This document shows, in pieces, positions 22,180-46,650 of a stretch of 64,000 bases of DNA. The notes under the pieces were generated by a model. The model was given only the letters and a program-made list of their open reading frames with translations. It had not been told where the DNA came from and made no database searches. Origin of the DNA: a virus; IMG/VR virus record IMGVR_UViG_3300045141_000181, positions 8,813-72,812 of that record; one strand, given 5' to 3'. Within the stretch, counting starts at the first letter, position 1. Each line of letters opens with the position of its first letter. A program made the translations under genes and the position numbers.

Positions 22180-22201
22180 AAAAATAAATCCATTTTTCTT
22201 C

Positions 22202-27478: not shown

Positions 27479-27702
27479 CACGAGACGAGAACTTTAGAAG
27501 AGTGCTCAGGGCGAGCAGATTAGCCAGCGAGGGTGTAACGATGGAATCACTTATCGAAGAAAACGACCGGCTGCGGTCTGCGTTGAAATTAATTCAGTTT
27601 ACGGCTGAGCCTCTAGATTCATTAGGCGCTGATTTGATCGCTCATACAGCCAAGCAAGCGCTCGCCGGGGAGAAGGTTCAGGAAGCAACGCCCACCGCAT
27701 AG
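27475..27702 (+). CDS. Hypothetical protein, partial paralogue of upstream gene
   Basis: Shares ENDRLRxAL and KQALAG motifs. Confidence 0.6.
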   Translation: MTRDENFRRVLRASRLASEGVTMESLIEENDRLRSALKLIQFTAEPLDSLGADLIAHTAKQALAGEKVQEATPTA

Positions 27703-30593
27703 CCGCGAATCTCTTCCTCGGCCAGCGCCTTTGGTTTTAATTGCTGTCTGAGTGCTGGCGAGTTCTCTCCAAGCAACGTCGCCCTATCGTCGGTGAAAAC
27801 ATGCAATGTCTGCGCCGCCCGCGAACCACCTACATACACAAGCGACTTGTCCATCAGTGAACGTATGCGCGAATCCCCGGTATCAAGATGCAACAGAACA
27901 TTCTCGGCGGTCGCATACTGCAAGCTGTAGCTCGTCATGGCATAGGAGTAGTCGACATGCGGCATGGCGCGCGCATCCCAGCGCACCTTGCGCCCATCCT
28001 CAAACTCCAAGACTCCTCGCCCTTTAGCATCTAGCGCCTTAATTGTGGTCATCGCGCGGTTGGGTATCCGTTCGTTCTTATTGAGTCGCCACGGTCGCGT
28101 AATCTGGACCCGCTCGCCCACTGCTAGTTTGCGGCGCTCCGCATTGTAGATCTCGACGCCATAAGCCAGCCTGGGGTTGTATGTCTTCTCGACGCCGTAG
28201 ACGTCGATCGTGACCAGATTCTTTGCCGTATCCGTGCGGACCACGGGCGTATAGTCGCCGCTCTTTACCCCCAGCATGGCCACGCCTTTCCCCCACCGGA
28301 TCACGTTACCCGCTTCGTACATCACGGCTAACTTGCGGTCTGCCTCGCGTACATCGCGCGTGCCGACAAGGATTGTGGCCTCGTACCGATCCGCTCCCAA
28401 CTTCTCGACCTTGCGCATCTCAACGCGCGCCGCGGCGTTCAACTCTGCGATCGATCGGTTATCCGGCGCAACCATGAGCGTGTCGTCATGGGCCGCATAC
28501 CACTGCGCCATTGCCTGAAACCGTTTCTTGCGGTCAGGCACTTGCCACACATGGGCCTGCTCATCCAGTTTCTTCAGCCCTTCTGTGATTCGGCCTTCCT
28601 TCCAGTCGTTCACCACTTCGAGCAAAGCCGGATTATTCCGCTGGCGTACGATCTTTTCCACCTGAAACATGGGCACCCCGGCCATCTTCATTTCTTCGAT
28701 GATTCGGCCCGCCTCTACAGATTGGTGTTGTCTCAGGTCGCCCGCCACTACATAGCGATCCTCGGGCCTAATGCTGCGCAGGAAAGTGTAGAACTGCCGT
28801 GTGCCGATCAATGAGCCCTCATCCAGGATGTAGAGGCGCTTATTCTCCGATGGATCAACCGACGCATGATTATGCGCCTGAATTGTCATGGGCTCGATTC
28901 CCAGTGTGCGCAAGTTCTCTGCTGCCTTGGATGCGCTGGCCATTCCGATGACCGTATAGCCCTGCTCTCTGGCTACCTCCGCAATCGGCTCCAAGGATGT
29001 GGTCTTGCCGGTGCCCGCCGCGCCGAATACCAGCATGCCTTGATGCGGAGAGGTTAAGACATTGAACCCTATGCGCATCTGGCCACCATTCGGAATGATG
29101 ACCTTGTCGCCCTTTTTGCGCTCCTGGTAGCGCTCCCTGAATTCATCGGCGGTCAGATCAGGCGCAATCGGGGTTACAGTTCCCTTTCCGGCCAGCATTA
29201 CCTCAATGCTCTGCCGCTCCATCTGCTGCATGGCTTTTGTCGTATAGCGCGCGCCAGGAGCGTTTTCCCGGTAATGCCCTACCCTAACGAACTCCTGCCG
29301 CCCCGCAAACGCTTCCTCAACGTCCTGGAGTCGCAAATGCCCCAATCCGGCTCTTAGGGCATCGCGCATTAGCTCGTAATGGTCATTTACCGCTTGGTGC
29401 TCGAAAAGCCGGTCGCGAGCGTGGTCTATCGAACGGTGCGCCCGTTTGCCCAGCTCGGCGGGGGAAAGTATGTGAACCTGACGCGCCTTCGATTCTGCCA
29501 CGATGCGCTCCGGATGCTGGCCGAACTCTTCCGCCTGCCGTCGGTGTTCGGCTTTTAACGCCCCCGGATCCCATTCCTGTTTTGGCTGGCGCAGCGCTTT
29601 GTTGATAATCTCGTCGGCGGCGGCACCGGTTACGCCGCGGCGCTCTTTCTCGGCTTCAATCTCATTCGTGCGGGCCGAGATGCTTTCCAGGTACTCATCC
29701 GAATAGCCCTTGATGCGTGTGCTGAAGTTTTTCCCGTGCTCCAGTTCGAATCCGCCCGCCCATGCTTGTCGAGCAAGTGACGCCTCGTATACGGCATTCA
29801 TGTAGCTTTGAATGGCGAAGATTTCCCACGTCAGGAGCGCCCTCACCTTCCCATCCGCGTCCGTCATGTTCATAATCACGCAATGTGTGTGTAATTGCGG
29901 ATCCGGCGCACGATTCTCAACGGGGCGAGATGTGTCATGTACGAACCTAGCAACCGCCCAATTGCCGGTAGTGTACGGCAACCGCGCCTTGCCCATTCGG
30001 GTTTGCGCGTAGAGTTCTCCAGCGTCGAGCATTTCCGTCACCGCGCGATTGTGCCAATCCACAATGCGCTTGTCCCCACCGACCAACGCGGACGCACTGT
30101 AGCTTTTGTGGGGCGAAACGACTACATCCCAGGATGCTACATGTAGAGACGGTGCCTTAGCTTCCTTCTCCGGCTTACCAGGCGGCACAACACGGAACTC
30201 GACGGGGTCCAATTCGAGCGGGTCGACTTCGTCCATGAATTCGCGCACGCCTTCCGGCAACTGCGCACGCTCGCCAAGTGCCCATAGATTCCTTACGTGT
30301 TCCTCCCACGCTACATGGTCAGTGAGCCATTTCGGTTCCCATAGTTTTGGATCGGGCGCCGGCAATCGGTGCTTGATTAATTGCTCCTCGGTATGGGGAT
30401 GTTTCCCGGCAGCCAGCAGATCATAGTGCGCCATGTCGATCGGCCCGACCAGTCCCCACTTTTCCGCAAGTTTGCCGTGCCAAGTTCCGGGAGCGTGCGC
30501 GCCTTCCGTGTAATAGTAGGCGTTCTGTTGTTCGCGCGGATAGTCTTTTGTGTGCGCTTCCCCGAGCGGCTTCGATACCTTGGCTACACCCAT
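27678..30593 (-). CDS. trwC: MOBF (TrwC/TraI-like) relaxase-helicase
   Basis: N-terminal YYY, DVVVSPHKS, HDTSR...DPQLHTH (HUH) motifs; helicase GAAGTGKTT, LDEGS, GDLRQHQSVEAG, YAMTSYSLQ, YVGGSRA. Confidence 0.95.
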   Translation of the reverse strand: MGVAKVSKPLGEAHTKDYPREQQNAYYYTEGAHAPGTWHGKLAEKWGLVGPIDMAHYDLLAAGKHPHTEEQLIKHRLPAPDPKLWEPKWLTDHVAWEEHVRNLWALGERAQLPEGVREFMDEVDPLELDPVEFRVVPPGKPEKEAKAPSLHVASWDVVVSPHKSYSASALVGGDKRIVDWHNRAVTEMLDAGELYAQTRMGKARLPYTTGNWAVARFVHDTSRPVENRAPDPQLHTHCVIMNMTDADGKVRALLTWEIFAIQSYMNAVYEASLARQAWAGGFELEHGKNFSTRIKGYSDEYLESISARTNEIEAEKERRGVTGAAADEIINKALRQPKQEWDPGALKAEHRRQAEEFGQHPERIVAESKARQVHILSPAELGKRAHRSIDHARDRLFEHQAVNDHYELMRDALRAGLGHLRLQDVEEAFAGRQEFVRVGHYRENAPGARYTTKAMQQMERQSIEVMLAGKGTVTPIAPDLTADEFRERYQERKKGDKVIIPNGGQMRIGFNVLTSPHQGMLVFGAAGTGKTTSLEPIAEVAREQGYTVIGMASASKAAENLRTLGIEPMTIQAHNHASVDPSENKRLYILDEGSLIGTRQFYTFLRSIRPEDRYVVAGDLRQHQSVEAGRIIEEMKMAGVPMFQVEKIVRQRNNPALLEVVNDWKEGRITEGLKKLDEQAHVWQVPDRKKRFQAMAQWYAAHDDTLMVAPDNRSIAELNAAARVEMRKVEKLGADRYEATILVGTRDVREADRKLAVMYEAGNVIRWGKGVAMLGVKSGDYTPVVRTDTAKNLVTIDVYGVEKTYNPRLAYGVEIYNAERRKLAVGERVQITRPWRLNKNERIPNRAMTTIKALDAKGRGVLEFEDGRKVRWDARAMPHVDYSYAMTSYSLQYATAENVLLHLDTGDSRIRSLMDKSLVYVGGSRAAQTLHVFTDDRATLLGENSPALRQQLKPKALAEEEIRGYAVGVAS

Positions 30594-30596
30594 CCC

Positions 30597-30983
30597 TTAT
30601 CCGTTCAGCCAGCGCATGAATTTACTCTTTTTGCTAGGCGCTTGCTTGACGGGTTTTGGCGTTCGTTTTACGGCGCGCTTTTTCCTGCGAAGTTCTTCGA
30701 TTTCCGCTAAAGCGCGTTGAAGTTCTCGCGTTTGAGCCATGTGCGCATCGGACAGCCCATCTAGCGACGCGTCTGCCTCTTCCCAGAGACATATGGCGCA
30801 TTTGTCCATTCCATCTACACCAACCCAGCACTGCAACGAATGTCCACATGGTCCGATCGCTTTTGCTTCAGCTAGTTCGCTACGCAGCAACGCGACCGTC
30901 TTATCGTAAAGCTCGATCTGGGCACGCTTTGTGGCAACTTCAAATTCTAATTCCGCGAGGGTTGGTTTCCCTGTATCGCTCAT
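30597..30983 (-). CDS. Coiled-coil/Cys hypothetical protein between T4CP and relaxase
   Basis: Start revised to MSDTGKP (GGAGG, ATGA overlap). Confidence 0.6.
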   Translation of the reverse strand: MSDTGKPTLAELEFEVATKRAQIELYDKTVALLRSELAEAKAIGPCGHSLQCWVGVDGMDKCAICLWEEADASLDGLSDAHMAQTRELQRALAEIEELRRKKRAVKRTPKPVKQAPSKKSKFMRWLNG

Positions 30984-32908
30984 ATCCCCTCCGTAAGCGG
31001 ATTCGGATTCGGCGCTTGCTTTGCGGTTTTCTTCGGCAACCGCAACGGTTCCGGCTCCTCGTCGCGCGTCGGGATAGTGATAGGCATTTTGCGCGGGATT
31101 GGCGCAGGCGTGACATCCTCCGCAGCGGGAGTTTGTTCCGGTTCCTCCAGACGAGGAATCAATCTTTCCATGCGGCAAGTTCTCGTCTTGCGCGGTAACG
31201 GTTGTATGTTGATCTTCACTGTTTTTCCTTGCTGCTTTAGCCAGCCCTCGAACAGCGGCACGCCTTGCACTTCGGACCCCATGACCGGGTCAATCGTTGG
31301 AGTCTGATTAGACCAAGAACGCGATCGGTTATGTTTCGCCATCATGTGAGCTGGTCGGCTTTCTGTCATGCGCTCGATTTCTTCTTTACCAATCAGTCCA
31401 GCCATTTCCGCTGCTGCCTTGTCGCTTTCGGTTTGCAGAATGATATTCGTTGCGGCCTGCGATGTGACAGTGACCGCGCCGTTGTCGCCGTAGCGATCCT
31501 TAAGTTGCGCCATGTCGTGAATTCCCAGGATCAGCACGTTACCAGACGCGCGTTGTTTCGTCATGCCGGATTGCAACTGCGGTAGCCGTTGCATACTGGC
31601 TAGTTCGTCCAGAACAAACCACACCTTGGGAAGCTTTACACCGGGAGCGGGCGGCGCTTGTGTACTGAGAATCAGCAGATCGATCACGGCAGATTGCAAA
31701 GGCAATAGCGCCTCTGCGGTGAGTGGATCGCTGGTCATAAAAATCCACCCTGTACGCTTCGCTGCAAATTCCCTGACAGAGAACTGCCTACGACCTTCCG
31801 GAGTTGCTGGCATCATGCGGAGCGCTTTGGATACTTCGCCAAGCGTGGCCCATATTCCGGCTCCCTGTTGCGGCGCTTTCGGATCTGTCGCAACCGCAAA
31901 TTCCGTACCCTTTAGCTTTGGTGCCACTTCTTTTTCTGGATGTGCCAGCCAATAACCAAGAGTGGACATCGGAGCGGGATAGCGAGACATCAGAAACGAA
32001 AAGATTCCTTTGGCGTAATTCCGAAAGAATGGCTGCGAACGCGGCAGTTCTGGCCAAAAGGCAGAACCCCAAGGCGTGGCCTGCGCTTCATCTTTTGCCT
32101 CTGACTCAAACGCATGATATACGCCTCTGGAATCCGTTGGATCATAGATCGAGTCCCCGCGCGACTCGTCGTAAAACTCATCCCTGAATTCGCCCTTTGG
32201 ATCGTAGATGACCGCCGTCTCGCCTCGGGCCTGCACTTGGTGCAAGATCTCCCTAATGAGCGTAGACTTGCCACGACCCGTCGCGCCGAATATTCCGAAG
32301 TGGTACGCAAGAAACTGCTCAGCGATGTGGATCTTTTGCCACGACCGTTTGCCAACTCGCAGTGTCAACCCGACCGGCTTAGGCGACTCCGAATTGAACC
32401 GGCTCCGGCTCACCATGCGCGTGCCGCGCACATGTACGCCCCACTGTCCCATGCGCTGGCGGCGACGGTCATACTCCACGCCCACCGCCACGCACAGAAC
32501 GAACCAACCGCAGAACAACAACCCGAACACTCGGAATGTGCTTAGGATGTCGCCCGCGTACACGTCCTTTTCGAGCCACGTGCGCAACTTGGACGGAACG
32601 GCTTGCACCATTTGCACGCGCTCCTCTGCAACCGGCTGCGTCACCAGGTGCGGCGCGTTTGCCGGACCCGTAACCACCATCGGGTACCACTTCCATCGCT
32701 CCGTCTTGTGCAATCCAGACAGCGCACTTTGCGCAACCGTGCGCACGTACGTTGACAAGTAGTATTGCTGCAAGATTGGTCGATAGTGTACGCCGACTTT
32801 CCACCAGACCGGTACCAACACTAGCGCAAGCAGAATGCCGCACAGTTTGCCGATCGGTGCGCGTATCGGGAACGGTCCCCAGCGGCCAGGCGTTGCGCGC
32901 TCAGACAT
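30980..32908 (-). CDS. trwB: Type IV coupling protein (TrwB/TraD-like)
   Basis: Two N-terminal TM helices, Walker A GATGRGKST, IYDPKGEF, Walker B VLDELASMQRLP, QLKDRYG. Confidence 0.92.
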   Translation of the reverse strand: MSERATPGRWGPFPIRAPIGKLCGILLALVLVPVWWKVGVHYRPILQQYYLSTYVRTVAQSALSGLHKTERWKWYPMVVTGPANAPHLVTQPVAEERVQMVQAVPSKLRTWLEKDVYAGDILSTFRVFGLLFCGWFVLCVAVGVEYDRRRQRMGQWGVHVRGTRMVSRSRFNSESPKPVGLTLRVGKRSWQKIHIAEQFLAYHFGIFGATGRGKSTLIREILHQVQARGETAVIYDPKGEFRDEFYDESRGDSIYDPTDSRGVYHAFESEAKDEAQATPWGSAFWPELPRSQPFFRNYAKGIFSFLMSRYPAPMSTLGYWLAHPEKEVAPKLKGTEFAVATDPKAPQQGAGIWATLGEVSKALRMMPATPEGRRQFSVREFAAKRTGWIFMTSDPLTAEALLPLQSAVIDLLILSTQAPPAPGVKLPKVWFVLDELASMQRLPQLQSGMTKQRASGNVLILGIHDMAQLKDRYGDNGAVTVTSQAATNIILQTESDKAAAEMAGLIGKEEIERMTESRPAHMMAKHNRSRSWSNQTPTIDPVMGSEVQGVPLFEGWLKQQGKTVKINIQPLPRKTRTCRMERLIPRLEEPEQTPAAEDVTPAPIPRKMPITIPTRDEEPEPLRLPKKTAKQAPNPNPLTEGI

Positions 32909-33203
32909 GCTTTTCCTTGTGCCACTCTTGTATGGAATCGGCATCGGCCAGTTCCTGCAACAAAGCACTAGCGCGATATCCAGCGGCACCAAGTAGCGTT
33001 GCTAATTCTTCTACATAGCTGAAGTATGTCTCCAATTCATCTGGATCAAGTGGAGGCTTTCCAGCAATCGCCCTTTGAATTACACTGTGAGCTTTCGCCA
33101 GCGCACAGCACGCCATGATTAACGCAGTGTCTAGCGTCTCCATGTCCAGCGGTTCTTCAGTCACGTTTGCACGCCTCCGTACAGATCTCCCGGTACTCTT
33201 CAT
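32901..33203 (-). CDS. Hypothetical protein
   Basis: Fills the gap between the RHH and T4CP genes; start uncertain. Confidence 0.45.
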   Translation of the reverse strand: MKSTGRSVRRRANVTEEPLDMETLDTALIMACCALAKAHSVIQRAIAGKPPLDPDELETYFSYVEELATLLGAAGYRASALLQELADADSIQEWHKEKHV

Positions 33204-33480
33204 GCGTCATTGGTACGTGTCCGTTATCAATTTCCCATTCCTTGATGAATCTCGTGACACGCAAAAGATCGCCCAACTTTTTACGGATGATGCGAATGCT
33301 TTCCGAATCTTCTGCGCTACCACTGCTTGCTTCACCGTTGCCGACAATCTCGCGCAATATCAGATGCCGAATATACGAACTTTCGTCCATGCCCCGACCG
33401 CTCGCCAAACCACGAAACAAAGCGGCCTGTTCCTCGCTCAGCTTCGTCCCAACCGACACCGTTTTTGATCCGTTTTTCAT
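33157..33480 (-). CDS. Ribbon-helix-helix relaxosome accessory protein (TrwA/NikA-like)
   Basis: TVSVGTKLSEEQAALFRGLASGRGMDESSYIRHLIL RHH pattern; first gene after the candidate oriT. Confidence 0.75.
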   Translation of the reverse strand: MKNGSKTVSVGTKLSEEQAALFRGLASGRGMDESSYIRHLILREIVGNGEASSGSAEDSESIRIIRKKLGDLLRVTRFIKEWEIDNGHVPMTHEEYREICTEACKRD

Positions 33481-33590
33481 GTGTATTCTACTTAACCCCA
33501 GTAACCCCAGTAACCGATCTGAATTCCAGAGACGTCATCTCAGGGGGGAGTAAACCCGTGTCGCCTTTTTGGTTTACCGTTGGCTCTATC
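33481..33590 (+). other. oriT: Candidate origin of transfer (oriT), putative nic between 33587 and 33588
   Basis: Direct repeats TAACCCCAG x2.5 (33493-33515), inverted repeat GTAAACC/GGTTTAC (33550-33577), then CGTTGGCTCT^AT, resembling the R388 nic GTATTGTCT^AT. Confidence 0.65.
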
Positions 33591-33840
33591 ACGTTATGGG
33601 TTGCTTGGCTAGTTCTTCTTGGCATTCACACCAATAGGCTGCAAGGCATACCGCCATTTCCACTTCAGACAGAAGTTCGCCACCATCCCTAGCCATCATC
33701 TGCGCAGCCATCCGTCTAGCAACACGCTCTTGCACTGGGTTGGTTAGGCTTAGCTCTCGCAACGCCCTTTCGCACCTAGCCTGTATGTTTGGGCGCATGG
33801 CAAGCCTTATTTTTGCCGCCATGCCAATGACCCACCTCAT
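33589..33840 (-). CDS. Hypothetical protein
   Basis: GGAGG RBS upstream. Confidence 0.55.
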   Translation of the reverse strand: MRWVIGMAAKIRLAMRPNIQARCERALRELSLTNPVQERVARRMAAQMMARDGGELLSEVEMAVCLAAYWCECQEELAKQPIT

Positions 33841-33883
33841 AGCCGATATCCCTCCGAAACCGCCATAACCTCGCGCCCAACAC

Positions 33884-34099
33884 TCATGGAACTATCTCTC
33901 CGTCTATCCAGTGACCCAGCCATTTGCCTAAGCTACCGTCAGGATTTTGTTCAAAGACAATGGGTGCCGACGGCAGCATTTCCGCCAAGTCGTACCACGC
34001 CAGAAGGCACTCAAGAAGCGATTGCCCGATATAACTTTCAGTATTCGATAACCCACAAACGAAGTACATCCACCGAAAGAGCATCTGGCGCAGATTCAT
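33884..34099 (-). CDS. Hypothetical protein
   Basis: ATGA-coupled. Confidence 0.5.
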   Translation of the reverse strand: MNLRQMLFRWMYFVCGLSNTESYIGQSLLECLLAWYDLAEMLPSAPIVFEQNPDGSLGKWLGHWIDGEIVP

Positions 34100-34323
34100 A
34101 TCCCATATCCCTCAGAAATCTCCTTCACTTCTCTCTGCGCTGCGACTTCTCTATCGATTGCTGCATTCCTAATCGGAGTAGCGCCAATGCGTAATTTATC
34201 CAGGAATGATAGGTAATCCTTGCGTCCGTATTCATCACCCATCCACGGCGGGCCGCCGTCATATTTGTCAAGATACGCCCTCCTGACAATCCGCACCTCG
34301 TCTTCAATCTGATCACTTTTCAT
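34096..34323 (-). CDS. Hypothetical protein
   Basis: ATGA-coupled. Confidence 0.55.
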   Translation of the reverse strand: MKSDQIEDEVRIVRRAYLDKYDGGPPWMGDEYGRKDYLSFLDKLRIGATPIRNAAIDREVAAQREVKEISEGYGI

Positions 34324-38808: not shown

Positions 38809-38819
38809 GTTTCCTTCCC

Positions 38820-39533
38820 TTACTGAACCGGCTCGGCTTGCAACTCGGTAATGAGAATGCCTAGCGGGTTTTCTTCGCGGGCCTTCTCGGCCGTGGGGAT
38901 GCGAATCGAGTAGACGATACGCGCTCGCCATGACTTCTGAGCCGTCACTTCGCCGCTGGTAGATGTTGTCGTCTCGGTCCACCAGATCCCATACGTGTGT
39001 TGGCCTTCGACATCGTAGGTCTTGTACTGCACCGTTACGAGGTGCCCGTCGTCGGCAGCCTTGATTGGATCGTGCTCTTGATACCACGTCGCCACAACCC
39101 GCTTGGCTTGGCTGGCATCGCCGAGATAAGAGAAGCTCCTATCCCATGCGGTTGCTTGCGCGGTGCGGTCGCTCGTTACCGTGCGCCATGACTCAATGAA
39201 CCGCTTGAGAGATTGGACCTTAACCGCGTCCCATGTTGCAGCATCCATATCCGCAGGCTTGGTCGGCCCGGAATAGGAGACTTGATTAGCCGCATCTCGC
39301 TGTAGCACATATACGTCGGTCTTTGACAGCGTAGCCACATGCCAGAGGGCGGCGACCAGTGCGGCAACGATCCCTATCAGCCCGAAAGCCGCCAGCATCC
39401 AGTTGCGCCTACCGGCCGCAAGGTTGCTCCATGACTCTTCCCATGCGCGTGCGGCGAGCTTTGACCGAATCGCCGGGTCCTTATCGGCAGACTCTGCCTT
39501 GGTTCTTTGAAGTGTTTCTAGAGTGTGTGCCAT
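38820..39533 (-). CDS. trbF: T4SS inner-membrane protein TrbF/VirB8
   Basis: RRNW + TM helix, FIESWRTVTSD, ENPLGI. Confidence 0.93.
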   Translation of the reverse strand: MAHTLETLQRTKAESADKDPAIRSKLAARAWEESWSNLAAGRRNWMLAAFGLIGIVAALVAALWHVATLSKTDVYVLQRDAANQVSYSGPTKPADMDAATWDAVKVQSLKRFIESWRTVTSDRTAQATAWDRSFSYLGDASQAKRVVATWYQEHDPIKAADDGHLVTVQYKTYDVEGQHTYGIWWTETTTSTSGEVTAQKSWRARIVYSIRIPTAEKAREENPLGILITELQAEPVQ

Positions 39534-39541
39534 ATTTTTCC

Positions 39542-40759
39542 CTAATGATTGAATCCGTTGAATCTTGGCGTGCTACCGCCCGCGCCGGAATGCGGCATGC
39601 GGGCCGCTGAATTGACCGCAACCTGCGCCATGCTGACAGCGCCGCGCGCCATAGCTCCTGATGCTGCCGAGCGACCGCCACCAGGGGACACTTGCGGTGT
39701 TTCATTACCGCCCGATGGTGAGCCACCCGGCGCTACTCCATTAACAGAGTTCGCTGCACTGGCAGCACCAGAGACCGCACCACCTACCGCTGCCGTAGCG
39801 CCGCCGCTGGCGAACCCTGCCGCCACCATTGCCCCGGACACTGCGGCGCCTATTGCTGGCGCGACAAAGCTCAACATGTCGCTATGGCTAAGGTTTGGAG
39901 AGCCACCCAGTAGACCGGCAATGTGCGACGGCAGAAACCAGCAGACCGATGCGTACAGAACTGCACCGGCCGCGATCAGATAGGAAGCCTGCACACCGGC
40001 CTGAGTGAATGGGATGGCTTGCGCTGCCGCTATCCAGGAATTCGTCATCATCCAGCCCGCACCGATGAGCAAATACATCATCATCAGGCGGATTCCTGCC
40101 CCGAACGAATACGCGAAGTATCGCTCAACATACGAACTGGTATAGCCAGATCCGCCGAACCCCAGGAACAAGACACCCGCACCAAGCGCGACGAACGTTT
40201 GTACTTTGGCGATTATGAATTGTATGGTGATGACCAAAAAGCACGCGATGATCACCGTCCCGGCAAACACAAGCGCATGCGCTGTGGCGATATCGGCCAT
40301 CAAGCCGTGCTTGAATGCTTCCCATAGCAGCTTGCCGAATATCTTGAAGCCCTGGAGAAGCACTACTGACGGAGCTATAGAGGGCACCCCGCTTGCAGCT
40401 TTGCCGATCTGCACAAAGCTGTTGATAATCGCGCCCATCCATGTGCCAGCATTCATCAGTAGGGCCAAAAACATTCCAATCATCAGAATTTTGTTGGTAG
40501 CAGTGAAGATTACGCTTCGGATATCCTGCCCATTCCATGTACGCCACAGCGTCCAACCCAGAAAGGCCATTTCCAGGCCTGCCAACGCCCAAAAAATCTC
40601 AAATGCGAATGGAGAGATGGACGTGAACCATACAGTGGATACTTGCTCAATTGCCTGAGTAAGCGAGGACGGATCAGAGATGACCGGCGCGGACGGAGGG
40701 CCGAATTGCCCAAACAATACTGGCGCTAATAACAGGCCGAGCAAAAGGCGTTTATTCAT
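39542..40759 (-). CDS. trbL: T4SS polytopic protein TrbL/VirB6
   Basis: Multiple TM helices, FLGFGGS, LPSHIAGLLGG, G/A-rich tail. Confidence 0.92.
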   Translation of the reverse strand: MNKRLLLGLLLAPVLFGQFGPPSAPVISDPSSLTQAIEQVSTVWFTSISPFAFEIFWALAGLEMAFLGWTLWRTWNGQDIRSVIFTATNKILMIGMFLALLMNAGTWMGAIINSFVQIGKAASGVPSIAPSVVLLQGFKIFGKLLWEAFKHGLMADIATAHALVFAGTVIIACFLVITIQFIIAKVQTFVALGAGVLFLGFGGSGYTSSYVERYFAYSFGAGIRLMMMYLLIGAGWMMTNSWIAAAQAIPFTQAGVQASYLIAAGAVLYASVCWFLPSHIAGLLGGSPNLSHSDMLSFVAPAIGAAVSGAMVAAGFASGGATAAVGGAVSGAASAANSVNGVAPGGSPSGGNETPQVSPGGGRSAASGAMARGAVSMAQVAVNSAARMPHSGAGGSTPRFNGFNH

Positions 40760-40764
40760 TGGAG

Positions 40765-41085
40765 TTACCACGCCCGCGATCTGTCGGCGAGCGGTTCAGG
40801 TGCCGGGGTAGCCATCATTGCGGCGCGGCAGACGGTGCCTTCAGAACTGCGCCCCCAACTTGCTGTAGCGTTCAATTGCCGCTGCTGGCATGCCGTAGAA
40901 ATCTCCGTTGCCAGCGTGGGACGATTGGCGAACCACGTTCCCAGACTCAAGGCGTCAAAGGTGGACAGATCCCCAGCACCCGCCGCCTCAACCCGGCGCA
41001 CGATTGCCGATTGCTGAGCGTTCGGGTCATAGCAACCGATCAAGGAAATTATTCCCAGCATGGCTACACCTAGCCGACTAAACAT
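40765..41085 (-). CDS. Lipoprotein, candidate TrbK-like entry exclusion protein
   Basis: Lipobox LIGC; lies between trbJ and trbL; C-terminus ADRSRAW mirrors TrbJ ADTRAW. Confidence 0.65.
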   Translation of the reverse strand: MFSRLGVAMLGIISLIGCYDPNAQQSAIVRRVEAAGAGDLSTFDALSLGTWFANRPTLATEISTACQQRQLNATASWGRSSEGTVCRAAMMATPAPEPLADRSRAW

Positions 41086-41353
41086 GCGTGGCCTCCGTAT
41101 CAGTGCAGGCGAGTTTGGTCTCCGATATGACCGGTGGTGCTCCGCAAAACATGTATACTAAGCTCACCACCACGACCTGCATAACGGCAAACGCATTGCC
41201 GAATAGACGCACATCGGCTTCATAAGCGGCGGGCAAATCCCCAAACTTCAGAACCGCCCAGCACACACATAATGGCCATATTGCTACAACCAGAAGCCCT
41301 ATCACGTGCCTATATCTAGAGACAAATGATGCCGCTATCTTTATAGTTTTCAT
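41078..41353 (-). CDS. Small two-TM membrane protein inserted in trb operon
   Basis: Two hydrophobic segments. Confidence 0.6.
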   Translation of the reverse strand: MKTIKIAASFVSRYRHVIGLLVVAIWPLCVCWAVLKFGDLPAAYEADVRLFGNAFAVMQVVVVSLVYMFCGAPPVISETKLACTDTEATHV

Positions 41354-41359
41354 ATTGCC

Positions 41360-42085
41360 TTACCATGCCCTCGTATCTGCTGAAATGCTGCTCGGGTCGC
41401 CAAACCCAGAAGTGGCCGCCTGAATCTGTGCCTGCTGGGTATTAATCTGCTGTGCCGAAATAGCGGCCTTGGCTGCCATGTCAGCAGCAAAGAGTGCGCG
41501 CAGCTTCATGAGTTGAGCGACCGTTTCTGTGCCTACCGAAACGCCGAGCTGCAGACTTTGATTGCGTCCCTGCGGAGTAACCATTAGCGCTTGAATCCGC
41601 GCCATGAATTGCTGATCGTTGGCTAAGCTGTTACCCTGCATTCCGGCCGTATTGGCCACGCCCTGAATGGTCTTTAGTGCGGTATCTGACCAAGTGTTGT
41701 ATGCCGTAGCGTAAGTTTGCGTGCCTGTAGAAGCAAACGGTACGTAGACCGCGCGGAATTGATTGTCCATCTGCGCAAAGTCAAGCGCTAAGCCGCGCGA
41801 CTGCTGCAAGATACTTCCAAAACTTGAAATATCCGCCAAGATGTTCGTGCTCGGATGTTGCGCCAGATCAACCCCTTCTCGCACCATGATTTGAGCCATT
41901 TGCACGGCATTTAACGCGGTTTGGGCCTCCTTCACGTAATTTGATAGAAGCTGGGCGTGGTTGAGAAGCTGGGTAATTTCTGATGCTGCTAGTGGGTTCC
42001 AGAACTGCGCCCGCGCTTCCTCTGCCGGAACAAGCAAGAGCGCTGCCGGAAGAATCACAAGTGGGAAAGTGGATAGTTTACGCAT
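41360..42085 (-). CDS. trbJ: TrbJ/VirB5 minor pilin
   Basis: Signal peptide, ASEITQLLN, QLMKLRAL, C-terminal Trp. Confidence 0.88.
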   Translation of the reverse strand: MRKLSTFPLVILPAALLLVPAEEARAQFWNPLAASEITQLLNHAQLLSNYVKEAQTALNAVQMAQIMVREGVDLAQHPSTNILADISSFGSILQQSRGLALDFAQMDNQFRAVYVPFASTGTQTYATAYNTWSDTALKTIQGVANTAGMQGNSLANDQQFMARIQALMVTPQGRNQSLQLGVSVGTETVAQLMKLRALFAADMAAKAAISAQQINTQQAQIQAATSGFGDPSSISADTRAW

Positions 42086-44570
42086 ACTGGGCCGTCTCCT
42101 TTTCGGCCAGATTAGAAATCTGCGAATAGTAGTCTGCCCATTCGTTGAGTCCTCGCGAGCGAAGCCAAGTGGCTACCCAGCCGTGCCCATTGCGAGCGAT
42201 CATATTGTCAACGCGAGCGCGATCCGCATCAGTGGATGCCGCCACAAACGACAATGTGAGCGCACCCAATTCCAGCGCGATAAGGCGCTTCCCGTCGGGC
42301 GACATCACGTAGTAGTCGGACTTCAGCTCTGCATGTGCGATCTTTTCACGGTCCAGCGAATTGCAGCCCATCGCCTCGTACGCCGCCGCGCCCTCCAGAA
42401 TTGCTTGCGGATTAGGCAGGCACACTTTCGTTAAGCATTGATCCAGAACCGCCGATTTCAGCGGAGAAGCGAAGACCTTGGACAATTCCTGAAGAACCAG
42501 CCAAACCGACATGTTGAGCTTTCGCCCCTCAAGCAGGAATTCCTCGAAGCATTTAGCGGCCATCGGATGCGATAGCGCCTCTCGGAATTCATCAACCGTA
42601 ACGAGAGTCGGAACGTCCGAGCGAAGGCGCTTGCGGATCTTGTGGAAGATATAAAACAGGGCTCCATTCATGGTCTTTTTGTCGAGACGATACAGTTCAT
42701 CCATCTCGAACACGACCATGCGGCTTAGCTCTAAATTATCCTTTTCCCCGTCAAGGATGCCACCGCAGTAGAACTTCAGCGCTTCCTTTACCTCAATCGA
42801 AGCCACGGCCATCCTAAAATCCGTAAGGGAGCGCCCGCCCTTGCTGCCCGCGAGCAATTGCAGCGCTTCCGCTACATCATTGCGGATATCTGGAGTTACC
42901 GTTAAGCCGTTCTGATCCAGAAGAAGCTCGATCCACTGAGATGCCCAATCTAGATCCCGCTTTGTCTCTAATTGCGCCAGCGGACAAAGCAGCGTCTCGC
43001 CTGAATCGGGGCTGATATCTATGAAGTCGCCACCCATCGCCTTCGTGAGCGTATAAAGGGCGCGCTTCTTATCGAATGCATATACCTGCGCGCCTGGGTA
43101 GCGGAACCACTGCGCGATAGAGAGCCCCAGCCATGTGGTCTTACCGCTGCCGGTCGGGCCGGTTATCAATTGATGGCCTACGTCTTTAACTAATGGATGG
43201 AAGCGATACGCGCTGCCACCACTCGTAACCGCATGAAAGAGTGGTGGAGACTTATATGGAAAGTATGGCGACGGGCAAAACTCCAAGCCACGGAATGGTG
43301 CCGACAATGGCATCATATGCACTAAGTTTTCCGTAGTCACGATAAACGTGCGCGGGTCCTTGTACTGCTGTCCTGGAAATGTAGCCAGCCATGCCGCTAC
43401 CGCGTTGGTGGTCTCGACCCGACAAGAAAATCCGCAATTCTGGCGAATAACCCTTGTGATGGCCTGGGCCGCTTCGCGCAAACGCTCCACGCTTGACTCC
43501 ATAACTATGACCTTGCCCGAATACCGCACCGAGACCTCGCGTCCATGCTCTGCGAGATTCATGGCGCGCAACGCATCGCCCTCCAACTCAGCGGCTACCG
43601 TATCCGCAAGCTCCGGGGATGCATTCTGCATCAATTTGCTCTTGATGGAGGTCTTTTTGCTTTTCCACTTTCCCTTGTTCGCCTCATGCGCTTTCGTGGC
43701 TTCCTGCGCGTCCATGAGAGCACCCTGCTGGCAGAAGCGGAAATCATAAGGGATGGAGTCCAGTTCGCGCATAATACCGGCAAAGCTTAACTGTGGGAAT
43801 CCATCTATCGCGATGACACAGATGCGCTTTCCGGGGACCAGTTCATTCATTGGATCGCCCAGCTCCGGCTCCCCGCCACCCGTGAAATCATCCGCGGCCA
43901 AATATTGATTCAGGTGCGCCGGAACGTCTGGGATAGCGAATGGGAATTCTTCTCCACAGATACACCAGCGCACGTATTCCAGAAGCTCATCGCAGACCAT
44001 AGTGGCCTCGCCTACGCGCTTCTCATAACTCTTGAGACGGCGCACGCCGGGAAGATTCGCCCGCAGAAGTGAATCGATCTCGGATACCTTCTTTCCAAAT
44101 ACTGCGAGGTCTTTTTCATCAGATCCGCCGCCCTGCGTTGCGTCGAATAGAAACCGGGCGGCTTTCGCTGATCCTCCCGCGCCAGCCTCATACGAGACAG
44201 CCATAAAATAGCGGCTGAGTCTCGTTCCGCTTTCGTCGGCCAGCATATAGCGATTGCGGCGCTCATGGTCGATCATGTGCGAGACCGCATCGGGCCAGTC
44301 GGCACTTGGTGAATACTCCGACTTCTGGGAACGGATTAAATCGCAATGAATCGTCCAGCCCTTCCCCATGCGCAACTTACTAGACATGCGCTTGGCGATC
44401 TGCCAGCACTCCTCAATGGGCAGTGCGTCCATATCCGGACCCCAGAATTCCCATGCGGCCACAAGCACATTCGTAGATAGAAGCAGCACGCCATCGTCCG
44501 CAAGCGCGAAGTAGTCAATCAGGTCTGACAGACCATTAGCGTTTTTTCTGGCTTCAGCCTGAATAAACAT
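42078..44570 (-). CDS. trbE: T4SS ATPase TrbE/VirB4
   Basis: DVGHQLITGPTGSGKTT, AFDK, VDEF, GRKLN, LPNP motifs. Confidence 0.96.
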   Translation of the reverse strand: MFIQAEARKNANGLSDLIDYFALADDGVLLLSTNVLVAAWEFWGPDMDALPIEECWQIAKRMSSKLRMGKGWTIHCDLIRSQKSEYSPSADWPDAVSHMIDHERRNRYMLADESGTRLSRYFMAVSYEAGAGGSAKAARFLFDATQGGGSDEKDLAVFGKKVSEIDSLLRANLPGVRRLKSYEKRVGEATMVCDELLEYVRWCICGEEFPFAIPDVPAHLNQYLAADDFTGGGEPELGDPMNELVPGKRICVIAIDGFPQLSFAGIMRELDSIPYDFRFCQQGALMDAQEATKAHEANKGKWKSKKTSIKSKLMQNASPELADTVAAELEGDALRAMNLAEHGREVSVRYSGKVIVMESSVERLREAAQAITRVIRQNCGFSCRVETTNAVAAWLATFPGQQYKDPRTFIVTTENLVHMMPLSAPFRGLEFCPSPYFPYKSPPLFHAVTSGGSAYRFHPLVKDVGHQLITGPTGSGKTTWLGLSIAQWFRYPGAQVYAFDKKRALYTLTKAMGGDFIDISPDSGETLLCPLAQLETKRDLDWASQWIELLLDQNGLTVTPDIRNDVAEALQLLAGSKGGRSLTDFRMAVASIEVKEALKFYCGGILDGEKDNLELSRMVVFEMDELYRLDKKTMNGALFYIFHKIRKRLRSDVPTLVTVDEFREALSHPMAAKCFEEFLLEGRKLNMSVWLVLQELSKVFASPLKSAVLDQCLTKVCLPNPQAILEGAAAYEAMGCNSLDREKIAHAELKSDYYVMSPDGKRLIALELGALTLSFVAASTDADRARVDNMIARNGHGWVATWLRSRGLNEWADYYSQISNLAEKETAQYA

Positions 44571-44572
44571 TC

Positions 44573-44875
44573 TTAAGTTCTCCAGCGCTTCGCCCGGATC
44601 GGCTTAGCCGTCCAGAATCCTCGGTTGTAGCGTTGCGAATTGTGGTGGACCTCGATGAGGCGTGGGTCATCCTTAGCCATTTCTTGGAGCATTTTGCGGA
44701 GAAAAAAGAAAAGGCCAATCGACAGCCCAATCCCGTAACGATTGGGCACCGACAGCACCACCACCACGCACAATACCCCTACAAGCACTATCGCGGCCGG
44801 TTCGCACCCAACAAGTAAGTGTGTCCGATTAGACGACTCGTGGAACTTTGCGCAAAAGCTAGGGTGAATATCCAT
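44573..44875 (-). CDS. trbD: TrbD/VirB3
   Basis: SSNRTHLLVGCE + two TM helices + MAKDDP. Confidence 0.9.
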   Translation of the reverse strand: MDIHPSFCAKFHESSNRTHLLVGCEPAAIVLVGVLCVVVVLSVPNRYGIGLSIGLFFFLRKMLQEMAKDDPRLIEVHHNSQRYNRGFWTAKPIRAKRWRT

Positions 44876-44887
44876 TGGCCTTTTGAG

Positions 44888-45205
44888 TTAAATAATTGCG
44901 CCCTGGACGCCAGGGATAAAGCTGAGCAGTGAAGCGCTGCCCAAGGCGATTCCAGCAACCGCCAGAGTTCCCATTGCTCCGTTACCTACCGCGCCCATAT
45001 CGTGGTGGTGCCGATACCATGAGATCGCGCCAACCACCACCATGATTAGCGAGAGCCCATAAGCCAGAGGGCCAGCCACTTCGTTTGATAGCCCGAAAAT
45101 CGCTTCAGTGGCTACTAGCCTTCCACCACCGACAGCAAGCATGTGCGGGGCCGTTAGCAGGCTCGACAATATAAATCCAGAAGCACGTAATGCAAACTTT
45201 TTCAT
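44888..45205 (-). CDS. trbC: Conjugative pilin TrbC/VirB2
   Basis: Signal peptide, AGPLAY + two TM helices, C-terminal GAII tail like TraF-processed pilins; start revised to MKKFALR. Confidence 0.85.
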   Translation of the reverse strand: MKKFALRASGFILSSLLTAPHMLAVGGGRLVATEAIFGLSNEVAGPLAYGLSLIMVVVGAISWYRHHHDMGAVGNGAMGTLAVAGIALGSASLLSFIPGVQGAII

Positions 45206-45218
45206 CTCTAATTTCCTT

Positions 45219-46301
45219 TCAGACAAATCGATATGCGTAATCCTGTTTTTCTCGGTCGAATCCATCGATGAGCAGGATTTCGCGAACCTTTCGACCAGCG
45301 GAGACTCGGTCTTCGCCATCAATGAAAATCACCATGTTGATCGCTGACGCGATTCTTTCTCTGGTGGATGCCTCATGGCCACCCACCAAAGTCTCTAGCT
45401 TTCTAAGACCCTGTACGGCATCGTCAGCGTGGAGTGTAGCCAATCCACCCGAATGTCCCGTATTCCAAGCGCTTAATAGCGTGCGCGCTGGATGCTCCTC
45501 TCGCACTTCTCCAACCACGATGCGTTTCGGTATCAGGCGCAACGTCGTAGTTAGCAGTTCCGCTTGCGATATGTGCGCGGTTGACAATAACTGCACATGA
45601 TTAGGCAAACTGCATTGCAACTCGGGCGTGTCCTCGATTATTACGACCCGATCTCCCGGCGTGGATTCTAGCCAATCGTGAATCACGCTGTTCGCTGCGG
45701 TGGTTTTGCCGCTGCCTGTAGGCCCAACCATCAAAATATTCCTGCGATGACGATTGGCGGCTCGAATTACGTCAACGTGGTCAAGCGACGACGACTCCAT
45801 TTCTCGGCTGAACTCGTCGCGATTGCGTTTACTGTTGAGTGGATCGTCCTTTCGGGTTGTTATTCCGCCATCGTGCATATCCTGCAAAGAGAAGATTTTC
45901 TTCTGTCTGGTGCGGATGGCGAACACTGGAGATGTAACCACCGGGCTACATACCCCCTCTATTCGGTCCCCTGTCAACGGGAAGATTGTTTCCAGGATTG
46001 GGTGGTCATGATCAAATTGAATGCCGCGAACTGTTGCGATTCCAGAAAGCAGCAACGCGCTTGAGTTTGGCGGAAAATGATCCACACACATAAACCCATA
46101 ACCCAATCGATTTACCCACAGCCTAGAGTCTGCGTTCACCACCACATCAAGCGTTAACGGATCCTGAAGGAGTTCGACGATCGGACCAGCATGGCAAGCC
46201 AGATTGTGTAATTGCCGCCTCTCCTGGTCCGATGTCGTCTTCATAGATACTTTCGCTCCAATCGCAGATGTAACCGGTGTAGCCATCGCCTCATGATTCA
46301 T
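45219..46301 (-). CDS. trbB: T4SS traffic ATPase TrbB/VirB11
   Basis: GPTGSGKTT, IIEDTPEL, RIVVGEVR, WNTGHSGGLATLHA. Confidence 0.96.
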   Translation of the reverse strand: MNHEAMATPVTSAIGAKVSMKTTSDQERRQLHNLACHAGPIVELLQDPLTLDVVVNADSRLWVNRLGYGFMCVDHFPPNSSALLLSGIATVRGIQFDHDHPILETIFPLTGDRIEGVCSPVVTSPVFAIRTRQKKIFSLQDMHDGGITTRKDDPLNSKRNRDEFSREMESSSLDHVDVIRAANRHRRNILMVGPTGSGKTTAANSVIHDWLESTPGDRVVIIEDTPELQCSLPNHVQLLSTAHISQAELLTTTLRLIPKRIVVGEVREEHPARTLLSAWNTGHSGGLATLHADDAVQGLRKLETLVGGHEASTRERIASAINMVIFIDGEDRVSAGRKVREILLIDGFDREKQDYAYRFV

Positions 46302-46386
46302 TCCTTTTTGTTTTGCGCGGCGAGTGGTTGCCCGCCGCGCTATGTCGTCACCCTTTGGTTTTAAGTACTATCTCCTCCTAGTTCAT

Positions 46387-46415
46387 ACTGTACACATTTT
46401 TGTTTACACTGTCAA
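46387..46415 (-). promoter_or_regulatory. Putative trb operon promoter
   Basis: Minus strand TTGACA-N17-TACAGT with TACAC repeats in and around the spacer. Confidence 0.7.
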
Positions 46416-46467
46416 CCATTATCTTGTATAATTCTTTGTAGATAATGGATTACACTTATGCCAAGGG

Positions 46468-46650
46468 ATGAAAACTAAACAGCCCGTGAAGAAGCGTAGA
46501 GACGACGTTGAGCGAGCCCCAGTCAATATACGAAATGTTGCAAAACGAGACTGGGAGAACATAAAAGACATCGCCAAACAGGAAGGCTTGAGCCTCTGGA
46601 TGGTACTCGATGAGATGTTTCATGATTGGCTTAAGAAGCACCGCCATTAG
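46468..46650 (+). CDS. Small RHH-like regulator divergent from trbB
   Basis: VNIRNVAKRDWENIKDIAKQEGLSLWMVLDEM pattern. Confidence 0.6.
   Translation: MKTKQPVKKRRDDVERAPVNIRNVAKRDWENIKDIAKQEGLSLWMVLDEMFHDWLKKHRH

Follow-up and report, generated by a model that had tools for sequence, protein, structure and literature searches.

The window analyzed here is a 64,000-nucleotide stretch (one strand) of the IMG/VR virus record IMGVR_UViG_3300045141_000181, running from base 8813 to base 72812 of a one-contig record of 72,812 bp. It carries the terminase, head and tail genes of a tailed phage and, on the same contig, genes for conjugation: a type IV secretion system (T4SS), a type IV coupling protein (T4CP) and a relaxase. 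The first 127 bases of the record are an exact copy of the last 127, which is the signature of a k-mer overlap that closes a circle; the circular element thus has a length of 72,685 bp, of which the window covers 88%. In its classification, the record has direct terminal repeats and is 100% complete. Nearly all long genes of the element lie on the minus strand, and the GC content is even (0.51–0.58).

An earlier reading of the same letters (below, the original prediction) had proposed a hybrid of a temperate phage and an integrative and conjugative element (ICE), able to spread either as virions or by conjugation. The hybrid architecture stands: there is one circle, both modules are intact, and there is one integrase with one phage attachment site (attP). 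The dual transmission is something we infer from gene content. We consider it very probable that this is a real single replicon with both modules intact. It is also probable, if less firmly so, that it is the complete circular genome of a temperate podovirus-type soil phage, likely of Acidobacteriota, with a conjugation module fused into it.

The conjugation module

The transfer module (27678–46301, minus strand) encodes the Trb proteins from TrbB to TrbI, the pilin signal peptidase TraF, a T4CP and a MOBF relaxase-helicase (Table 1). All 12 recognizable transfer genes are intact, with catalytic motifs present. The relaxase keeps Tyr18 and Tyr26, the triad H219-x-D...H235-T-H237 and a Walker A motif; the T4CP has the Walker A sequence GATGRGKS, scores 228.7 bits in the family search and shares 47% identity with the T4CP of a related locus (L031). 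TrbB, TrbF, TrbG, TrbI and TrbL score above their Pfam cut-offs, and the true start of TrbG is probably downstream of the listed GTG. A relaxase, a T4CP, an ATPase of the VirB4 family and the type-specific genes for mating-pair formation (MPF) are all present according to the CONJscan-style definition of MPF type T. Among the scanned proteins of the module, no integrase or transposase was recognized, and neither was a VirB1-type transglycosylase.

Judged by its predicted proteins, the conjugation module is complete and intact; we put the chance that it is also functional at even odds. The Pfam and NCBIfam matches, together with the catalytic and Walker motifs and with alignments to relatives over the full protein length, confirm the intact T4SS, TrwB-like T4CP, MOBF relaxase and TraF of the original prediction. 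Its trbK is not confirmed as such: in that position there is just a 106-amino-acid (aa) open reading frame (ORF) with a lipoprotein signal, which has homologs in 13 of 39 related T4SS loci and no family match. As a separate observation, a 21-nt block comprising a ribosome-binding site and start codon occurs three times within the module (33837–33857, 34096–34116 and 34320–34340), each copy preceding one of three consecutive small minus-strand genes.

Table 1. Features of the element by window position (G003, G004 and G007 are related phage contigs; X2 is a mine metagenome; numbers such as 1.8e-63 are E-values)
Position	Strand	Feature	Evidence or remark
1-622 (contig 7074-9434)	-	Conserved tail protein, 786 aa, 3' part	Gene continues outside the window
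2733-3734	-	Conserved tail fiber-like protein, 333 aa	Weak phrog_2710 tail fiber match
3736-6126	-	Tailspike, pectate-lyase-like beta-helix, 796 aa	phrog_2234 1.9e-7; Pfam Pect-lyase_RHGA_epim 1.8e-8
7234-7935	-	HNH endonuclease after capsid gene	phrog_826 7.4e-33; no counterpart there in G003/G004
8010-9281	-	Major capsid protein, HK97 fold, 423 aa	188 homologs; AF2 + Foldseek
9311-10762	-	Scaffold-position protein, 483 aa	Between portal and capsid genes; no family match
10815-11066	-	Acb2/Tad1-type anti-defense sponge, 83 aa	Pfam Acb2_Tad1_hairpin 2.3e-17, above cut-off
11088-13460	-	Portal protein, 790 aa	718 homologs; AF2 + Foldseek
14151-16139	-	Large terminase subunit TerL	phrog_2 1.1e-24, phrog_979 3.3e-24; 2.6e-23 in genome search
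14470-14819; 19539-19887, 22740-22978, 23758-24024		Identical X2 pieces, phage side	terL; small-gene region
16057-16773	-	HNH endonuclease upstream of terL	phrog_826 2e-57; Pfam HNH_3 3.8e-18
19596-20159	-	187-aa protein common to phage relatives	50%/43% identity to G003/G004; weak N-terminal HTH_23, E 0.0079
27678-30593	-	MOBF relaxase-helicase, 971 aa	Pfam TrwC 1.8e-63, AAA_30 5.9e-38
29799-30004; 30773-30986, 32310-32518		Identical X2 pieces, transfer module	Relaxase; T4CP
30980-32992	-	Type IV coupling protein (TrwB/VirD4 type)	TrwB_AAD_bind 5.6e-67, TraG-D_C 2.6e-17
33157-33480	-	RHH-like putative relaxosome accessory protein, 107 aa	Position upstream of T4CP; RHH-like N-terminus read from translation
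33481-33600	.	Candidate oriT region	Intergenic, upstream of RHH gene; GGTTACTGGG tandem, 7-bp hairpin, TCTAT motif
35982-36524	-	TraF pilin signal peptidase	TIGR02771 TraF_Ti 8e-24, residues 23-176 of 180
36521-37813	-	TrbI (VirB10)	Pfam TrbI 1.9e-52
37813-39087	-	TrbG (VirB9/CagX)	Pfam CagX 4.5e-32, residues 189-416
38820-39533	-	TrbF (VirB8)	Pfam VirB8 2.6e-26
39542-40771	-	TrbL (VirB6)	Pfam TrbL 1.2e-21
40765-41085	-	106-aa lipoprotein ORF, TrbK/VirB7 position	LIGC lipobox in translation
41360-42085	-	TrbJ (VirB5)	TIGR02780 TrbJ_Ti 1.3e-23
42078-44570	-	TrbE (VirB4 ATPase)	Pfam CagE_TrbE_VirB 26.3 bits, cut-off 21; Walker A
44573-44875	-	TrbD (VirB3)	Pfam VirB3 5.7e-4, below cut-off; 60-63% identity in 18/39 related loci
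44888-45322	-	TrbC pilin (VirB2)	Pfam TrbC 6.4e-6, 26.7 bits vs cut-off 27.9
45219-46301	-	TrbB (VirB11 ATPase)	Pfam T2SSE 5.6e-29; Walker A
46387-46415	-	Best promoter-like site of module, upstream of trbB	TTGACA-N17-TACAGT, 10/12
46647-46961	-	DnaA C-terminal helix-turn-helix (HTH) protein	Pfam Bac_DnaA_C 4e-23
47805-49130	-	DnaB-type replicative helicase	DnaB_C 3.7e-49, DnaB 6.9e-21
49127-49918	-	DUF1376 replication-associated protein	Pfam DUF1376 1.2e-7
49915-50610	-	N6/N4 DNA methyltransferase	Pfam N6_N4_Mtase 2.5e-12
51452-51510	-	tRNA-Thr(UGU)-like fragment, probable attP core, 59 nt	Rfam tRNA 33.5 bits, gathering 29
51606-52679	-	Tyrosine integrase	Pfam Phage_integrase 4.2e-11, Int_N, Phage_int_SAM_3
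53325-53801	-	Holliday-junction resolvase	phrog_1770 3.8e-13
54511-55794	-	Erf-like single-strand annealing recombinase	phrog_155 1.1e-41; Pfam ERF 5.7e-21
58707-62711	-	1334-aa beta-helix protein	Atlas: right-handed beta-helix clusters, score 0.90, lead only

The virion module

The virion module continues for ~7 kb past the window in the same circular contig. Every virion gene that it has in common with its T4SS-free relatives keeps its full length, whether it lies in the window or beyond, with no stops or truncation; decay of essential virion genes beyond the window was accordingly not seen. TerL matches phrog_2, the spike is of the pectate-lyase type, and the portal and the HK97 capsid are supported by their folds, so that the originally predicted terL, portal, capsid and spike genes are all upheld. 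The predicted scaffold agrees in position and conservation, whereas no family match was obtained, and the function of this 483-aa protein is assigned from its position.

Searches of the Protein Data Bank (PDB) with the portal profile and with TerL gave no sequence match, and fold comparison was therefore used instead. The capsid model (AF2 on 36 homologs, pLDDT 65) has 35 PDB matches at E ≤ 0.001, the listed top ones being phage capsids and encapsulins, with the capsid of SU10 best (E 2.6e-6, probability 1.00, TM 0.34–0.43). The portal model (AF2 on 66 homologs, pLDDT 85, pTM 0.78) matches the portals of SU10, N4, Pan3, Pa223, P22 and T7, all of them podoviruses, at a best E-value of 2.4e-13. 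TerL is ~25% identical to that of any cultured phage, and all 537 matching records are below 60%.

No adaptor or nozzle was identified by family, and the tail hub is an Atlas lead only: for the 786-aa tail protein (54% identity over its full length to G003, 34% to G007) the Atlas points to viral clusters whose nearest named family is Phage_stabilise (P22 gp10-like; score 0.89). The 333-aa tail fiber-like protein shares 51–56% identity with G003 and G004 and 32% with G007. The tailspike at 3736–6126 lacks a counterpart in the relatives, as expected of a host-specific receptor binder. The 1334-aa beta-helix protein, also without a homolog in the relatives, is probably a second spike or depolymerase, and the two together fit a short-tailed, spike-bearing virion. 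We lean, by a narrow margin, toward virions still being made.

Four HNH endonuclease genes (7234–7935, 16057–16773, 20309–20884 and 50873–51373, one with an AP2 domain) are dispersed over the genome and resemble free-standing homing endonucleases. Two of them adjoin the capsid gene and terL, respectively, at places where the relatives lack such a gene. The Acb2/Tad1 family is a cyclic-nucleotide sponge against CBASS/Thoeris-type defense; its member here lies between the portal and scaffold-position genes, where G003, G004 and G007 have no counterpart. These phage-type accessories argue, on sequence grounds, that the element or a recent ancestor lives as a phage. The segment at 58707–64000, consisting of the 1334-aa beta-helix gene and a 410-aa neighbor, has no homolog in the relatives and stands apart in its tetranucleotide composition (correlation 0.44–0.68, against 0.81–0.89 among the other segments); the 410-aa protein and the 214-aa product of contig 985–1629 have a C-terminal domain in common.

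Early region, integrase and attachment site

The right flank of the transfer module is a phage-type early region (Erf, resolvase, integrase, HNH-AP2, methylase, DUF1376, DnaB and the DnaA-C HTH protein), and no plasmid Rep or partition family was found among the scanned proteins. A single integrase was recognized, and just downstream of it lies a tRNA-like stretch that occurs once in the contig, lacks the D-arm and has the anticodon loop UUUGUAA. ARAGORN called no tRNA in the window because of this truncation. A partial tRNA copy beside an integrase is the usual form of attP; because the fragment here adjoins the integrase in this way, the tRNA-Thr site is supported. No second att copy exists in the circle at ≤2/18 or ≤4/22 mismatches. 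The original prediction that the only integrase and att site are those of the phage agrees with the one integrase and the single att copy, and its tRNA-Thr with the Thr(UGU) loop. Neither a bacterial attachment site (attB) nor a host species was identified among sampled Acidobacteriota genomes, of which 90 of 301 match only at a generic tRNA level (the best match is 87% over 45 nt, and there are a few 24-nt matches at 96%). This tally includes two unpublished genomes (G031 and G159), which no conclusion depends on.

Physical linkage of the two modules

Logan contigs of three sequencing runs were aligned to window positions 14000–33999, which span the left junction of the transfer module. Run X1 is possibly the source sample, X2 is a mine metagenome from another study, and X3 is a soil metagenome from a third. 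In X1, a single Logan contig of 22,841 bases matches 20214–33999 with 0 differences and continues ~9 kb into the T4SS. Because it spans the junction of relaxase and phage, a second assembler also joins the relaxase to the phage side. Its depth is 10.4, and that of the contigs across terL is 12–12.4. X2 provided 100%-identical contigs of 200–350 bases at a depth of 2.2–4.4 from both the phage side and the transfer module (Table 1), and X3 provided terL pieces (1–5 differences) and T4CP-region pieces at a depth of 2.8–3.9. A chimera would hardly yield both halves at the same low depth in independent studies, and the hybrid has persisted across the three studies. In X3, there is also a low-depth contig that links 19188 with 30185 and leaves out 10,996 bases; 6 foreign letters lie between, and the shorter side has only 20 letters. 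Joints of this kind are often spurious, as this one probably is; if real, it would represent a deletion variant without the left junction.

The tetranucleotide signature of the transfer module correlates at 0.85–0.89 with the element's other main segments and at 0.75–0.82 with four related ICE-type loci. Composition thus supports one element, but modestly, since all of the compared sequences are fairly alike. Among reference genomes, the closest TerL (58% identity) comes from a Bryobacteraceae metagenome-assembled contig, and the nearest TrbE proteins (65–67%) have Silvibacterium sp. and a Bryobacteraceae bacterium as source names. The nearest kin of both modules in Acidobacteriota would point to the same host clade.

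Relatives of the two halves

In the capsid family, 22 of the 119 listed non-self clusters (55–82% identity) have a longest contig of 59.9–77.4 kb. Twelve related viral contigs were retrieved, among which G003 (67,457 bp), G004 (70,593 bp) and G007 (76,503 bp) have terminal repeats. Identity to these three, in that order, is 72, 66 and 41% for TerL, 56, 53 and 34% for the portal, 53, 51 and 30% for the scaffold-position protein, and 81, 76 and 50% for the capsid; tail proteins are 32–57% identical to those of the relatives. Outside the virion block, the relatives share two small genes at 19.6–23.8 kb and nothing at 24–64 kb. One of the two encodes the 187-aa protein in Table 1, so the DNA to the left of ~24 kb is phage-family DNA. 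The variable half of G003 has a VapE-type primase, helicases, methylases, YqaJ, an RDF-like protein and a weak integrase match. The family thus consists, judging from these comparisons, of a conserved virion module (~23 kb) and mosaic early halves. Any match to the VirB4 or T4CP families was absent from four relatives (G003, G004, G005 and G007; only the present element, G000, matched), and the fragmentary relatives L001 and L002 are T4SS-negative too, although they are fragments.

Two further observations concern genome size and content in this family. CheckV rates G003 and G004 (terminal repeats of 127 and 80 bp) as 70% and 73% complete and a 93-kb linear relative as 96%. The family may therefore comprise two classes of genome size; otherwise, completeness was measured against a larger relative. 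G003 and G004 also encode, at the end of the virion module, a giant protein with SNF2/helicase domains (4,377 aa at L028:643–13776 for G003; 4,252 aa for G004), of which the present element keeps only a 207-aa stand-alone homolog, encoded outside the window at C1:2034–2657. The giant protein might serve, for instance, as an injected anti-restriction protein.

On the conjugative side, related TrbE proteins occur in 39 metagenome loci (415.5 kb in total, with flanks of ≤10 kb), in which the stretch from trbB to the relaxase supplies all recurring genes and nothing is shared on either flank. One of these loci lies in a chromosome-sized contig of 1.07 Mb. Among the plasmids of PLSDB, no TrbE is more than 36.9% identical. 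In a search for prophage forms, the capsid-family profile matched 1 of 401 sampled genomes, distantly, which tells little. Neither single-protein nor alignment searches with TrbE found another viral contig with this TrbE lineage.

Boundaries of the module and genome size

The transfer module sits between the replication genes (DnaA_C HTH, DnaB and DUF1376) and the late region, as originally predicted, and it is co-oriented with the early genes. The claim that it overlaps convergent genes at both ends is correct for the left, where the relaxase stop overlaps a convergent 75-codon ORF by 25 nt (27678–27702), but not for the right, where the stop of the DnaA-C gene overlaps the start of a small co-directional ORF (TAATG, 46647–46650), followed by a 150-bp intergenic region. 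Of the sigma-70-like sites in the entire 20 kb, the best two lie in that region, and one of these faces trbB. Promoter-like sites are at chance level here (14 against 13.4), and the trbB site, being a consensus match, is a pointer only. No direct or inverted repeat pair brackets the module (one four-copy "repeat" is a P-loop coding motif), which, with no recombinase or transposase of its own among the scanned proteins, agrees with the original prediction. Because recurrence in related loci is confined to the stretch from trbB to the relaxase, the limits of the module are those originally proposed, and it arrived without a backbone. Its insertion site is undefinable, as the early half is common to no relative and a search with DnaB found no viral relative; in none of the relatives, which lack this whole early half, does the module appear as a discrete insert bearing an att site.

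Despite 19 kb of transfer genes, the 72.7-kb genome falls within the 67.5–76.5 kb of relatives with terminal repeats. The giant gene of G003 and G004 takes up ~13 kb, and its counterpart here is one 207-aa ORF that matches residues 375–539. Size and the near-absence of the giant gene fit selection to stay packageable, but only softly. The giant gene is absent from G007 as well (terminal repeats, CheckV 100%), and is therefore not core.

Between the late genes and the transfer module, a 64-nt promoter-like element occurs twice (20886–20949 and 21323–21386; 437 bp apart, 72% identity), with TTGAC..., a CAGCTAGCAG core and a TA-rich −10 followed by ATG. The pair may be operator-controlled leaderless promoters. 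Convergent with the relaxase is a gene for a 299-aa protein (25924–26823, plus strand) with a weak C-terminal PEP-CTERM-like motif (E 0.001, below cut-off). PEP-CTERM is a sorting signal of exosortase-bearing bacteria, and the protein may be host-adaptive cargo.

A possible dual-route element and the alternatives

The most far-reaching reading, with a probability of roughly one in three, is that of an element with two routes, in which a single integrase–attP pair would feed either capsid packaging or conjugation, the conjugation module being fused into the early region. On the main reading given at the outset, the variable half of the phage probably acquired the Trb system, the T4CP and the TrwC relaxase-helicase from an acidobacterial ICE-like lineage. 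Since the module brought no integrase or att site, the whole element would depend on one integrase and the tRNA-Thr-like attP. In the mechanism that we find likeliest, the prophage would sit at a tRNA-Thr gene, from which the integrase would excise a circle. In the lytic exit, this would be replicated, packaged through terminase and portal into HK97-type heads, and released. In the conjugative exit, the relaxase would nick oriT near the RHH–T4CP–relaxase operon, the T4CP would pass the strand to the Trb channel, and the recipient would re-circularize and integrate it; the receptor specificity of the tailspike would be bypassed. The phage integrase would thereby take the part in conjugation that otherwise falls to the integrase of an ICE. 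We infer all of these steps from sequence (excision, nicking, transfer, packaging and regulation), and that both routes work is held only tentatively. By composition, the whole 72.7-kb element would qualify as an ICE that also encodes a virion. Accretion of a phage and an ICE in tandem was rejected, there being no second att, one integrase and no bracketing repeats.

A number of results weigh against the main reading, dual transmission included. As to linkage, no X2 or X3 piece bridges a junction (within 14000–33999), X1 is perhaps the source sample and then offers an independent assembler rather than independent data, and the read-contig support covers the left junction and not the right one (~46.3–46.7 kb). 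As to ancestry, TrbE or relaxase was found in none of five long phage relatives (the one positive control matched), on which ground a T4SS as a family trait was rejected. Profile hidden Markov models for capsid, portal and TerL matched none of the 39 T4SS loci (only the positive control matched). The hybrid is a singleton and could be a short-lived accident. The size argument is softened by relatives of up to 93 kb (the linear G005) and 96.7 kb (contig P0022). Within the module, TrbC and TrbD (Pfam) and TrbJ and TraF (NCBIfam) are significant but below curated cut-offs; for TrbJ and TraF, which match at near full length, a score below the equivalog cut-off is as expected for a deep lineage. 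The originally predicted oriT was not confirmed: its hairpin (33550–33577) was weaker than or equal to 195 of 200 shuffles, the adjacent RHH-like protein has no family match and no homolog in the related T4SS loci, and these loci give the candidate region no comparative support. Finally, no endolysin, holin or repressor was recognized among the 70 scanned proteins, many small ORFs being outside that scan; in so divergent a family, this absence is weak evidence either way.

The same absence of lysis genes and repressor counts in favor of an alternative, in which the element would live as an ICE that fused with a phage whose virion genes are unused or decaying, and would simply have been classified as viral. 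We regard this as unlikely, although it is the most probable of the alternatives. The whole early half, including the integrase, differs from that of all phage relatives, and integrase, attP, replication genes, T4SS and relaxase make up a standard ICE backbone; the hybrid is without a second example, and the giant virion-associated gene of G003 and G004 is cut to a 207-aa piece. That gene is also missing from G007, however, and every virion gene common to G003 and G004 is full-length, with no stops or truncation. An Acb2/Tad1 sponge and four HNH genes are set among the phage genes, Erf and the resolvase are of phage type, and the genome size suits the phage family. Alternatively, a working phage might have gained the T4SS by illegitimate recombination, in which case the genes would not be usefully expressed and would be lost again. 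Such a transient recombinant would account for the five T4SS-free long relatives, the lack of any other viral contig with this TrbE lineage, a layout that is not conserved at family level and an unvalidated oriT. It seems improbable given that the same hybrid is in three studies (X3 having pieces of both modules from a slightly diverged variant), which speaks for spread and persistence, and that all 12 transfer genes are intact with catalytic motifs. The composition of the module is, moreover, nearer to the rest of the element than to the ICE relatives, and the best promoter-like site of the region is upstream of trbB.

A chimeric assembly, in which the phage was joined to some unrelated conjugative element of that sample, is a concern with a short-read metagenome assembly that was closed by a k-mer-length (127-bp) overlap, all the more as the independent junction evidence is limited to the left side and the combination is otherwise unseen. 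We judged it very unlikely. The left junction is bridged by a second, independent assembly with 0 differences (depth 10.4 against 12), and both modules co-occur in all three studies, at matching depth in the two besides X1. A circular chimera would require two false joins, whereas both halves point to Acidobacteriota and the composition is uniform. Least probable of all, to our minds, is that the T4SS serves some other end: its pili might let lysogens adhere or aggregate, or it might keep out competing plasmids and pilus-dependent phages or mobilize other DNA. Temperate phages commonly carry lysogenic-conversion modules, a lipoprotein is encoded in the position of TrbK (entry exclusion), and the element has no validated oriT. 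A relaxase-helicase with intact catalytic residues and a T4CP are nonetheless needed for DNA transfer rather than for secretion or adhesion, and the order of small RHH-like gene, T4CP and relaxase is that of conjugative DNA-processing operons, presumably matching TrwA-B-C of R388.

Comparison with known systems

The T4SS resembles the Trb system of Ti plasmids and other MPF_T systems in having TrbB-C-D-E-J-L-F-G-I plus TraF, a VirD4-type T4CP and a TrwC relaxase fused to a superfamily 1 (SF1) helicase. It differs from plasmid Trb/MOBF systems in that its TrbE is 36–37% identical to that of any PLSDB plasmid, and its nearest kin (65–67%) are uncultured acidobacterial elements. On the virion side, SU10 (Kuravirus) and N4 provide the best structural matches for capsid and portal and also have beta-helix spikes, but identity in the structural alignments is 9–14%, and the present phage, with its integrase, is temperate. 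N4 has a giant virion RNA polymerase encoded at the end of its virion module; the giant gene of G003 and G004 has the same position but SNF2-helicase domains rather than an RNA polymerase.

The original prediction held that virion formation and conjugation are rarely found together on one element. This needs updating, because phage–ICE composites and one cointegrate have since been described. Huang et al. (Sci Adv 2026, PMC13651849) describe 612 phage–ICE composites, mostly tandems, with some nested forms (ICE::Phage and Phage::ICE). In their streptococcal tandems, a phage integrase makes a circular intermediate that the ICE machinery conducts; tRNA genes are named as frequent att sites, and cases of an ICE within a phage are listed. 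The physical linkage of phage and conjugation genes is the same as here. Their composites, as that paper words it, "retain distinct identities" "rather than a hybrid element", each part with its own integrase and att borders. The present element has one integrase, one attP, no internal att, no repeats at the module and the genome size of a single phage. The published set as described came from RefSeq cultured bacteria, mainly Pseudomonas, Streptococcus and Staphylococcus, whereas ours is a viral-contig record with kin in Acidobacteriota.

Phage-plasmids of the P1, N15, SSU5 and VP882 types (PMC7969092, PMC10879196, PMC12282955), defined by plasmid-type maintenance, likewise combine a full tailed-phage gene set with plasmid or conjugative functions, and conserved phage genes with a variable other half. 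Unlike them, this element has an integrase and attP and no Rep or partition family among its scanned proteins, although a circular assembly is silent on the lysogenic state. According to the literature on that group, P1-derived plasmids gained only oriT or mob, and did so after losing phage genes, and a 2025 preprint calls T4SS domains only "sporadic" among putative phage-plasmids. A further case is p1002-1 of E. coli, termed a "conjugative phage-plasmid" (SegMantX, 10.1101/2025.03.14.643293), which is also a single replicon with a conjugation system and a phage gene set. As reported there, a conjugative plasmid and a phage-plasmid fused as whole replicons, and the resulting cointegrate resembles both parents in gene composition; here, in contrast, a bare trbB-to-relaxase module without a backbone lies in an integrative phage whose size is within the range of its family. 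The streptococcal "conjugative prophage" Phi1207.3 is reported in its description to be capable of conjugal transfer (PMC4260502). In the present case, by comparison, the machinery is encoded on the phage. Phi1207.3 is not known to have an annotated T4SS or relaxase set of its own.

Significance

With this element, phage–ICE composites come to include a fused form beside the tandems of separate elements, and reach into uncultured bacteria of soil. A 2025 review (PMC12282955) states that conjugative examples had not been found among phage-plasmids or prophages, and treats transfer by virions and by conjugation as alternative strategies, with burst size and dispersal on one side and host range, donor survival and cargo size on the other. 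If the dual-route reading is true, the element would be a natural counter-example to that statement. Phage–ICE cooperation would then exist in fused rather than tandem form in Acidobacteriota, where conjugation and phages are little studied. Such elements will be mislabeled by classifiers that assign every sequence to either plasmids or viruses, as 10.64898/2025.12.20.690322 also points out. A phage with this gene set would show how a phage can escape the limit that receptor binding sets on its host range, and that the size limit of a capsid is compatible with a transfer module of 19 kb, and the trade-offs between virion and conjugative transfer would become measurable in a single genetic background.

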